A DNA stretch of 64,000 nt from a virus. Of this stretch, positions 22,073-63,906 are shown piece after piece (within the stretch, counting starts at the first letter, position 1; every line of letters starts with the position of its first letter). The position numbers were made by a program, and so were the translations under genes. The stretch spans positions 64,001-128,000 of IMG/VR virus record IMGVR_UViG_3300031884_000939. One strand, 5' to 3'. The notes beneath the pieces were generated by a model. That model was not told where the DNA came from. It ran no database searches and worked only from the letters and a program-made list of their open reading frames with translations.

Positions 22073-22750
22073 TTAAGTTGTTTTTTTCTTACAGCGATCC
22101 ATGTGCCATCTTTTCATGATACTAAGACCGCCAGTTTTATTACAATGAGGACAAGTTATTACTTCTTTAATTCCTGCCCTTATTCCTACTAACTCGCCCG
22201 ATGCTAACCGAGGATCGTCTACTGATACCTGCATAACATTGCCATTTTTATCTTTTACTGTAGTAGTTCCGGCTGTAGCATTAACTAACTCGCCAGTTTT
22301 AATTCTAATATCATCTACTGCTACTCTAAATTTATTGCCAGCTTTATCAACTACGGTTACCTTACCTTTAGTATGTGCTACTAACTCTCCGGATATAAAC
22401 CGAGGATCGTCAACGGCTACTCTAAATTTATTACCGGCTTTATCTATCACTGGAGTAGTGCCTTTATTGCGTCCTTTAGGACCAAACCCTCCGCCAGACT
22501 CAGGAATCCTATTAGCCCATTCTGCGCTCTCAACTATATTCCATTTCTCACTAAGTCGTCGCCCTTCATTATCAATTACCGATTTATCATCAGATTGACA
22601 TATTATTTCAGTAATATGATTCTTTCCGTGCTCTGCTAAATGTAGTTTCCAGTCAACCCCGGATCCTCGATATTTAAACGGATCCCGTTCTGTCTGTCCC
22701 AGATACTTTAATCCAGTAACCGAGTGAGTCTTAAGATAAAGATAGTGCAT
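22073..22750 (-). mobile_element. Free-standing GIY-YIG (Seg-like) homing endonuclease
   Basis: YLYLKTHSVTGLKYLGQT...YRGSG; three ~31-aa repeats; C-terminal CPHC...RWH..C. Confidence 0.8.
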
Positions 22751-29510: not shown

Positions 29511-29750
29511 TATTCTTTAACTTCTATGTTTGGTTTTTCTTTGTTAGTCATTAGTTTTTCAGACTATCTATTATAAAATCACCAGCATCTCCAAACTCAT
29601 AGCCTTGATGCGGATACACAGCAATATTCCGTTCTCTACGATATATTGTAGTGAGCCAATGCCACTGTCCGTTGATCCGACGTGGTTTCCACGGACCTTG
29701 CGGTCCTTTAATAAATTTAATAAGTGTTAGACGAGATGATAAATAAGAAT

Positions 29751-29812
29751 GCCGATCACGATACTGGACATATCTACCGGCTCTAACAGTTAATAAGGAA
29801 CTATCAGCATGA
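29751..29812 (-). ncRNA. Candidate two-hairpin cis-antisense RNA over the homing-endonuclease RBS
   Basis: Minus-strand TATAAATA (29813-29820), then stems CUGAUAGUU/AACUGUUAG and GCCGGU/AUCGGC; G-U pairs only form on the minus strand. Confidence 0.6.
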
Positions 29813-30480
29813 TATTTATACCCAACAAATACACTAAATGGTATTTTGCCATTATCAATAATGCCAGGACTCGTACTAATACTGGTTATAACGAACAACA
29901 TCATATTACTCCTGAGTGCTTTTTCAAAAACAGAACTCGCAAAGGTCCAGCTGGACAGCTAGTCGGTAATCCTGAAGATCCATCCAACAAAGTAAAACTT
30001 ACAGCAAAAGAACACTTCATTTGTCATCACCTTCTAACTAAAATGCTTGCCGATACTCGCCCACGGGCACAAATGCTAAAAGCCCTAGAACGAATGACCG
30101 CAAGTAATAATAAACATCAACGCTACAAAATAACAGCCCGACTATTTCAACAAATTCGTATCGAAGCCGCTACAGCACATTCAACTCTAATCAAAGGCAA
30201 ACCGAGCCATTCAAAAGGTAAAAAATGCCCTAACATCTCAATGGCTAAAACAGGTAAATCTATTAAACAACCACCTAGAACCGAACAGCATCGTATCAAT
30301 CTTGGCAATAGCCTCAAAGGTAAACCTGCTTGGAACAAAGGTAAAACTTACACTAACAAACCATACAAACGATTAACCTGTCCTCATTGCGGATTAGAAG
30401 GTAGCATCGCTAATATTAAACGCTGGCATAACAATAACTGTAAATCAATCCCAATGGGCACGGAAGTACTTTCCAAATAG
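29809..30480 (+). mobile_element. Free-standing HNH-type homing endonuclease with NUMOD3-like tail
   Basis: NKYTKWY..II..A, YNEQHHITP, LTAKEHFICHHLLTKM, PAWNKG, CPHCG...RWHNNNCK; opposite strand to neighbours. Confidence 0.85.
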
Positions 30481-31116
30481 TCTAAATCCGTTATCCATCC
30501 GGGCTTGATGTGCTTTAAGTCCTTCCCAATCACATTTAGGACTTACGTAATTTTCGTCCCATGGCGCTGTGTCATTACAGCCACTATGATCCCAAAACTT
30601 ATCTTCGGAGTGTTCATCAACTAATTGTTCGAATGCCCATATTTCTTCGTTAAGCACCCAGTCCCAACGGTCATGTAGTGTTGTATCTTCATCGCCCATG
30701 TCTACAGCGTGTGCGTTAACCTCTACACCTTTTTTCTTACGACGCTGACCTTTTTTGTAGCCTTCAGATTGTAAGTGTACCGGTACATCTTCGTCGTCGA
30801 CATATGGACTACCATGCTTAGTATCACGTAACTGTTTGAGCATAGGTAGTATGACATCAGCTAATGTATGATCCATTGACCAAGTGTCCCAAAAGTCAAT
30901 CTTGATATAAGACCAGCGTGGGTGGACTGTGTCTAGGAACTTTTGCCATAGTTGGCAAATAGGATCTAATATCTTAACCCAAGTTCCATATACAGGTTTA
31001 TACGCTACATCGTGGTCATAAAAGACTCCATCGTCCTTTTCCCAAAAGCAAACTCGCTTGAGAATATGATACGGGCTTACCCAGTGATTACGATACTTAC
31101 TTGTCCAAATTTTCAT
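30445..31116 (-). CDS. T4-like hypothetical protein
   Basis: IDFWDTWSMDHTLADVILPMLKQL...RWDWVL.E.IWAF...GFRLFGKYF..WD. Confidence 0.75.
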   Translation of the reverse strand: MKIWTSKYRNHWVSPYHILKRVCFWEKDDGVFYDHDVAYKPVYGTWVKILDPICQLWQKFLDTVHPRWSYIKIDFWDTWSMDHTLADVILPMLKQLRDTKHGSPYVDDEDVPVHLQSEGYKKGQRRKKKGVEVNAHAVDMGDEDTTLHDRWDWVLNEEIWAFEQLVDEHSEDKFWDHSGCNDTAPWDENYVSPKCDWEGLKAHQARMDNGFRLFGKYFRAHWD

Positions 31117-63441: not shown

Positions 63442-63906
63442 ATGGAATTATGTAAATTACCTAACTGCAATAAGCCTGTAAAAAACTATTGTACTCATTT
63501 TTGCTGTAAATCTCACGCCGCTAAGTATGGCGGTTTATCGCGGTATCAAGGCTATCCAAAGTTACCAGTTATAGATAACCGTATAAGACCAGCAGATTAT
63601 GTATCACAATTCTCATTACCATACAAGGACAGATTACCCGAAGTAAAAGGTAAATGGGTAGCCTACGTAACCGCTAGACAGCAACGAATAAAACAAGCTA
63701 CACCGCAATGGGCAGATCTTGAAATTATACGGTCGACTTATGTAAAGGCTCAAGAGCTTACAAAACAAACTGGAATACCGCACGAAGTAGACCATATTAT
63801 TCCTATCAAAGGGGAATATGTATCAGGGCTTCATGTACCAGCAAATTTACAAATACTAACAGAGTACGAAAATCAATCCAAAACTAACAAGTTTAAAGTA
63901 GAATAA
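63442..63906 (+). mobile_element. HNH endonuclease
   Basis: ATPQWAD, HEVDHIIPIKG..VSGLHVPANLQIL...NQSK.N; N-terminal Cys cluster. Confidence 0.88.

Follow-up and report, generated by a model that had tools for sequence, protein, structure and literature searches.

The stretch of DNA analyzed here, a window of 64,000 nucleotides, is part of a 158.5-kb phage contig (G000) that is about 45% complete and contains matches to the T4-like gp43, gp44, nrdA, and phoH. Its MobE-like nuclease, with 31% identity to T-even mob-like enzymes, is encoded by an ORF inverted relative to a run of minus-strand genes (Table 1). Since none of 54 homologs of the adjoining phrog_11543 gene has a nuclease beside it, the nuclease gene is, on this comparison, an optional insert beside a conserved gene, and the phrog_11543 gene is probably its homing target. 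One further locus (L001) has the same junction between nuclease and phrog_11543 gene.

The phrog_11543 protein ends in HWD in both nuclease carriers versus LWD in the 50 empty alleles listed, a difference (window 30445-30480) that may reflect self-protection of the cleavage site or an effect of the overlapping coding sequences. A small minus-strand gene adjoining the cassette described below (29551-29733) has CTT where its homologs L451-L453 have ATG, and its frame is open across the cassette to an ATG at 29904; this gene probably lost its start on or after the insertion. Also in the window are nuclease-like genes that lack the cassette, a Seg/GIY-YIG-like gene co-oriented with its neighbors (22073-22750, minus strand) and an endonuclease VII/HNH-like gene (63442-63906, plus strand).

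Table 1. Features of the nuclease gene and its cassette (positions in the window).
Feature	Position	Strand	Remarks
Late promoter hexamer TAAATA of nuclease mRNA	29740-29745	+	predicted +1 G29751
U-rich 3' tail of putative antisense RNA	29740-29750	-	complement of sense promoter and spacer; 3' end inferred
Hairpin 2: lower stem, R-Y pair, two bulged G (29757, 29759), upper stem, loop 29765-29769	29751-29781	-	
Lone unpaired purine linking both hairpins	29782	-	A with few exceptions (in part a requirement of the search patterns), G in L015
Hairpin 1: base (CUG/UAG, including an invariant G-U) conserved, upper stem variable, anti-SD in the loop	29783-29807	-	
Shine-Dalgarno (SD) of nuclease gene	29794-29799	+	from sequence
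Predicted antisense +1 (G)	29808	-	T-1/G+1, 4-nt spacer here
Antisense late promoter hexamer TAAATA, codons 2-4	29813-29818	-	
Free-standing HNH (MobE-like) homing endonuclease, 223 aa	29809-30480	+	phrog_655, E 5e-40
phrog_11543 gene, 3' end overlapping the nuclease stop by 36 nt	30445-31116	-	

The nuclease gene is headed by one copy of a cassette of about 80 bp, at 29740-29818, in which a late promoter is followed by two hairpins, the RBS and ATG, and, within codons 2-4 but facing back from the other strand, another TAAATA. The original prediction had placed a plus-strand TAAATA ahead of the endonuclease and a minus-strand TATAAATA within its first codons, and both were confirmed, the latter at 29813-29820. 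The folds that it described for the antisense transcript are present as well: a 9-bp stem (29807-29799 with 29791-29783) whose loop CCUUAUU is the complement of 29792-29798 and overlaps the SD, and a second nested hairpin with stems 29781-29776/29756-29751 and 29774-29770/29764-29760. We refine the 1x3 internal loop of this second hairpin to one R-Y pair between two bulged G. Four G-U pairs were found as claimed, and folding favors the antisense strand, with an MFE of -19.2 kcal/mol versus -6.4 to -8.3 kcal/mol for the sense strand.

Fold and spread of the cassette

Viral contigs were scanned with two patterns, one anchored on hairpin 1 and the other on hairpin 2, and fetched loci with a strand-neutral descriptor that permits Watson-Crick, G-U, and A-C pairs. 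At least 157 distinct copies of the cassette were found in 2.9 Mb of fetched loci versus none in the reversed-sequence control with the strand-neutral descriptor; the copies share ancestry, and their counts therefore overstate independence. Among 77 aligned copies, 97% of cells are paired and compensatory changes occur at 11 of 19 pairs, with a covariation score of 0.48 versus 0.19 when shuffled (0/500) and at most 0.08 in slid registers, which bears out the expectation that the structure would be conserved among homologs. The single copy in the window is compatible with chance, TATAAATA being expected 13 times per 64 kb and the folding z-score ranging from -1.3 to -3.4 with the ends chosen. 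It is because of the number of distinct copies against the reversed control, and of covariation beyond that of shuffled alignments, that the comparative sequence data exclude chance.

Hairpin 2 has compensatory changes at 10 of 11 pairs and 98.5% of its cells paired, and its 1413 pairs include 58 G-U and no A-C when read on the antisense strand. Wobble pairs in the lower stem, G-U on the antisense strand, occur in 16 distinct variants. Hairpin 1 is more stable on the antisense strand in 137 of 139 variants (mean -6.3 versus -2.6 kcal/mol). Judged by these comparisons, the conserved fold is that of the antisense strand. Hairpin 2 is nearly symmetric between strands (-10.6 versus -9.3 kcal/mol), and the mRNA can therefore form its mirror image.

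The core of the fold, 53-58 nt in most copies, begins with a purine-CUG and continues through a variable stem-loop, UAG, an unpaired purine, a 6-bp stem, an R-Y pair between the bulged Gs, and a short capping hairpin. The hairpin-1 base, the junction purine, and the two bulged G are conserved beyond the needs of base pairing, although part of this invariance was imposed by the search patterns. The hairpin-1 base was conserved also in the second scan, which left it free, and the upper part of hairpin 1 varies freely where the pattern leaves it free.

The genes downstream of the cassettes encode about 79 GIY-YIG-like, 44 HNH, and 16 other proteins, and no domain common to them was found. The original prediction saw an element that travels with this mobile nuclease, which did not hold for the nuclease family: the cassette is carried by only 5 of about 50 distinct homolog loci of the NKYTKWY type, yet it heads many unrelated GIY-YIG and HNH genes. 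It is therefore, as far as these sequences indicate, a portable head exchanged among nuclease genes and not tied to one family. At six loci, cassettes stand before ORFs of 140-180 aa with DNA-binding-like repeats and no recognizable catalytic domain (L088, L089, L107, L130, L211, L280). At L285, two identical cassettes head different GIY-YIG genes on opposite strands, and two copies at L233 share an identical hairpin 2; we take these duplicates as signs of recent cassette copying between genes. Loop differences within a contig say little about selection for distinct loops, since 12 of 12 multi-copy contigs differ but identity would be expected in only 2.5%, and identical duplicates exist (L233, L285).

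The phage contig itself holds three full copies (15583, 47018, and 93738), one deletion remnant, and one decayed copy, and four other nuclease-like genes in it have no cassette. In the remnant, left by an internal deletion (G000:C1:41055-41130, L205), the 5' part of a cassette that keeps hairpin 2 is fused to the last codons of an HNH gene. The sense hexamer of the decayed copy (G000:C1:11619-11699, L206) is broken, and no nuclease ORF follows this copy.

Searches of cultured phages by blastn with the 29740 copy and L094 gave no relevant match; a third copy matched Variovorax phage V45v66 (E 1e-14). The cassette in this cultured carrier, which infects Variovorax sp. SCN45 (PV558790, 85992-86073; bioRxiv 10.1101/2025.06.20.660599), heads an inverted GIY-YIG gene flanked by uvsW-like and uvsY-like genes, and a gene for a gp55-type late sigma factor is close by (phrog_234, E 4e-40). 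Its antisense hexamer is 14 nt from the fold instead of 5, and its hairpin-2 loop is UUGGCG. The cassette is absent from S-PM2, S-SRM01, BcepSaruman, Motura, RSP15, and Xoo-sp13. Among 185,579 prokaryote genomes there were 16 clear matches to the cassette model, those with shown titles being MAG contigs, and these matches are probably binned phage DNA. Cassette contigs occur in bacterial MAGs of unrelated phyla (L302, L320, L331, L343, L349, L356, L360, L361, L362, L371, L373), which probably reflects the binning of phage contigs and not a host signal.

The facing promoters

In this genome, 31% of TAAATA sites lie 8-110 nt upstream of a co-oriented ORF, versus 7-12% for 14 permutations of the hexamer, and TAAATA is depleted in the window (37 versus 129 expected). 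By its placement and depletion, the hexamer has the behavior of a promoter element in this genome. A 5-nt spacer separates the sense hexamer from a conserved G in 112 of 151 copies and the antisense hexamer from the first G of the fold in 101 of 138. With hexamers at matching spacing on both strands, the predicted transcripts would therefore be complementary across the whole 5' UTR.

The antisense hexamer is present in 138 of 157 copies versus 4 of 44 cassette-less homologs, a control set that includes a variant-cassette carrier (L015) and thus works against the reported contrast. It occurs in all three reading frames. At the cassette position, Ile-Tyr is encoded by the synonymous codons that spell the hexamer in 72 of 76 cases versus 6 of 58 elsewhere in the same genes, and for Tyr-Leu the corresponding counts are 20/22 and 19/99. 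Judged by this codon choice, the antisense promoter hexamer is under selection. It is kept in 23 of 25 co-oriented and 65 of 74 inverted copies, and retention in both orientations makes it independent of host genes to drive.

Before intact ORFs, 16 of 136 copies have no antisense hexamer within 14 nt, some of them having TATATA or a longer spacer; loss before broken ORFs was not significantly higher (3/10, p 0.12). TATATA is often found at or near the place of the missing antisense hexamer (L093, L099, L174, L221, L228, L244, L265, L280) and is possibly a promoter variant. The A content of the sense-promoter spacer is 0.65/0.68/0.58 versus 0.33-0.38 in cassette-less promoters. Six cassette-less HNH homologs (L002, L004, L005, L014, L017, L018) have divergent, back-to-back TAAATA upstream instead of facing hexamers. 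The 8 nt that follow hairpin 2 contain a mean of 4.3 U in an interrupted run, which would make the U-rich tail a weak terminator at best, and a discrete 3' end of the RNA is therefore uncertain.

Proposed action of the predicted antisense RNA and its alternatives

Several features of the cassette recall antisense pairing. The CC of the anti-SD is unpaired in 122 of 138 copies, and the hairpin-2 loops, 6-7 nt long in 95 of 115, are variable in sequence and include no stable tetraloops. YUNR stands at the 5' start of the loop in 21 of 68 distinct sense loops (3.2 expected) and 13 of 68 distinct antisense loops (4.7 expected), and its excess survives the collapsing of near-identical loops (11/45 versus 2.0 expected), although a loop-closing U-G pair could explain part of it. 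The loop motif UUGGCG, which is the target-loop motif of the ColIb-P9 Inc system (cited in PMC3753616), occurs on either strand. In plasmid antisense systems, interior loops or bulges in the upper stem are required for pairing (PMC3753616, PMC10724649).

We consider it probable, with room for doubt, that the cassette produces a FinP/RNA-OUT-like antisense RNA of about 60-70 nt that caps translation of the nuclease. A phage sigma factor would fire both promoters late in infection, and the antisense promoter would yield an RNA running from G29808 to the U-rich tail near 29740. This RNA would meet, loop to loop, the mirror-image hairpin with which the nuclease mRNA begins, and pairing would then unzip through the bulged stem, cover the SD, and block translation, the RNA duplex probably being marked for decay. 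Polymerase collision between starts that are 57 nt apart may add to the repression. Because both promoters are of the same late class and would have the same timing, the RNA is not expected to act as an off-switch but to cap nuclease dose as genome copy number rises. A dose limit of this kind is set on IS10 by RNA-OUT, whose action is in trans and grows with copy number (PMC4513863). We therefore regard dosage limitation as more likely than the self-silencing of the original prediction. With its own promoter, RBS, and brake, the nuclease gene could sit either way, usually inverted and beyond early read-through. What counts against such a brake is that two studies in T4 saw no noticeable change in viability once the controls of I-TevI were removed (PMC2988022).

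A bolder and doubtful proposal makes the cassette a dosage controller that is universal and interchangeable among the selfish nucleases of large T4-like phages. A dedicated factor of phage or host, such as RNA polymerase acting in a put-like manner or an RNA chaperone, would recognize the invariant core of the cassette (the hairpin-1 base wobble, the junction purine, and the two bulged G), so that one RNA would brake the nuclease and also decide read-through into neighboring genes.

The main alternative, which we hold to be unlikely, takes the antisense hexamer for a promoter pointing outward, from which phage genes severed from their transcription by the inverted insertion are supplied anew, with the hairpins acting as a put-like antiterminator or stabilizer leader of a long mRNA. 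It stays alive because 69 of 108 cassette genes (64%) are opposite both neighbors versus 8 of 37 cassette-less homologs (Fisher 9e-6, the copies not being independent), so that the structured strand is usually the operon strand. A precedent for such a leader is put, a double hairpin of about 65 nt that acts in nascent RNA (PMC8632103), and T4 endonuclease genes embed promoters for their neighbors (PMC2988022); the weak U tail, and an invariant junction and bulged G suggestive of protein recognition, would also fit. However, promoter and fold are kept equally in co-oriented copies (23/25), which have nothing to drive, the next minus-strand gene in the window has no ATG, and neither the exposed anti-SD nor the either-strand loop motifs would be explained. 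The orientation of most copies would also suit a structure that acts within a long early or middle operon mRNA crossing the inverted gene, as a terminator, processing site, or built-in antisense, the second hexamer being incidental. We judge this very unlikely, since the hexamer is fixed about 5 nt before the fold and protected at synonymous sites, and the fold is kept where no operon reads the structured strand.

The invariant single-stranded and wobble positions amid freely covarying stems, and the retention of the cassette before some ORFs with no recognizable catalytic domain, would be expected if the small RNA worked with a phage or host protein as a scaffold or sponge or were catalytic, nuclease control being secondary. 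This seems quite unlikely, given that cassettes always lie over nuclease-type RBS, copies elsewhere being decayed only, that the downstream proteins share no domain, and that no known ribozyme family is matched. Searches of the phage contig, about 45% complete, gave no match to ProQ/FinO (PF04352), RegA, gp23, or gp45 and say little for or against. Two bulged G on one strand and the evident shuffling of the cassette among genes bring to mind an attC/REP-like hairpin of single-stranded DNA, with its G extrahelical, by which the cassette would be recombined or mobilized, and G-T is better than A-C in DNA also. Such a role is highly improbable: both ends of the element match predicted transcription starts, loop content tracks the SD, and neither the region of the nuclease stop nor the flank beyond the sense promoter contains a conserved second end. 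The known T4-type control, in which a sense-strand hairpin hides the RBS, shares a late promoter ahead of the gene, and some copies can form a weak hairpin over the SD on the sense strand. It is nevertheless scarcely credible here, and largely refuted by the strand asymmetry of hairpin 1 in comparative folding; moreover, the sense promoter lies upstream of the whole fold and not inside it as for I-TevI or mobE (PMC2988022).

Other candidates were rejected. A group I intron or paired insert ends would have no room and no conserved second end, and an RNA-guided nuclease with an omega RNA is at odds with the unrelated downstream proteins. A guide drawn from the upstream flank does not fit either, this flank being unconserved between the 29740 copy and L001 though their 3' junction is conserved, and the nucleases being unrelated. 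The core motifs of a hammerhead are absent on inspection.

Relation to known systems

To our knowledge, phages restrain their homing endonucleases by protein autorepression as well as by sense-strand hairpins, and CfrI is the sole antisense RNA described close to a gene of this kind. The sense-strand hairpins are known from T4 and Aeh1 (PMC2988022). If our reading is true, plasmid-style kissing-loop antisense control operates in lytic T4-like phages, regulatory heads are swapped among unrelated nuclease families, and the persistence of toxic nuclease genes in inverted orientation is explained. The copy in V45v66 makes a metagenomic motif experimentally accessible, and the covarying loops offer a ready-made collection of candidate orthogonal regulators.

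The cassette appears to be an abundant structured RNA family that is absent from Rfam and from the literature searched. Rfam 15, which holds FinP and RNA-OUT models, gave no match (best E 2.9 and 3.9 for two different copies), and no description of the motif was found in the literature, a prior listing being possible in a phage structured-RNA screen (PMC10690425).

In architecture, the predicted cassette RNA parallels FinP/traJ, with two stem-loops, a U-rich but interrupted tail, and overlap with the RBS; FinP itself is 79 nt long, has two stem-loops and a U tail, and blocks the RBS of traJ (PMC8136791). There is no sequence or Rfam match that would tie the cassette to FinP/traJ or RepX/repA (PMC8136791, PMC9977716), and it differs from FinP and RepX in having phage late-type promoters, a homing endonuclease as its target, a one-nt linker, and two bulged G. 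No gene with the FinO domain associated with FinP was found in the partial genome, about 45% complete. In IS10 (RNA-OUT/RNA-IN) and IS200 (art200), the mobile element limits its own mobilizing enzyme with a cis-antisense RNA over the RBS (PMC4513863), as we propose here, and the likeness to RNA-OUT makes copy-number-dependent action plausible. RNA-OUT, however, pairs from its loop to a linear 5' end, whereas the cassette has loop-loop features and serves unrelated enzyme families instead of one transposase. Variable loops of 6-7 nt, UUGGCG and YUNR, and a bulged upper stem are shared with Inc/RNAI and CopA (PMC3753616, PMC10724649), but these control Rep synthesis via leader peptides or pseudoknots, and no such element was seen in the cassette.

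The homing endonuclease genes of T4 and Aeh1 (I-TevI-III, segB, and mobE; PMC2988022) resemble the cassette genes in combining a late promoter with a limit on translation at the RNA level, the latter being our proposal for the cassette. In these genes the hairpin belongs to the sense strand, late initiation does away with it, and there is no antisense RNA; a stable sense-strand RBS hairpin of this kind was not found in the cassette. Nearly all T4 genes are co-oriented with their neighbors, whereas cassette genes are mostly inverted. HK022 put (PMC8632103) is alike in geometry only, as a promoter-proximal double hairpin of about 65 nt; it precedes operons that need antitermination, whereas the cassette fold is retained even where no genes follow it and lies across from an RBS on the opposite strand.

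A similar layout is that of CfrI in cyanophage S-PM2, an antisense RNA demonstrated by experiment that covers the start of a free-standing homing endonuclease gene (PMC2984593). CfrI starts inside the 5' end of the F-CphI gene, which has a late promoter, in a T4-like phage (NC_006820 136544-136741), but it is about 200-225 nt long, starts 57 nt into the ORF, and reaches psbA. The cassette model scored at best 6.5 bits against CfrI and had no match across the S-PM2 genome. By this comparison, CfrI is similar in layout and not homologous to the cassette; since CfrI is known from experiment, an antisense RNA such as that predicted for the cassette is less surprising.
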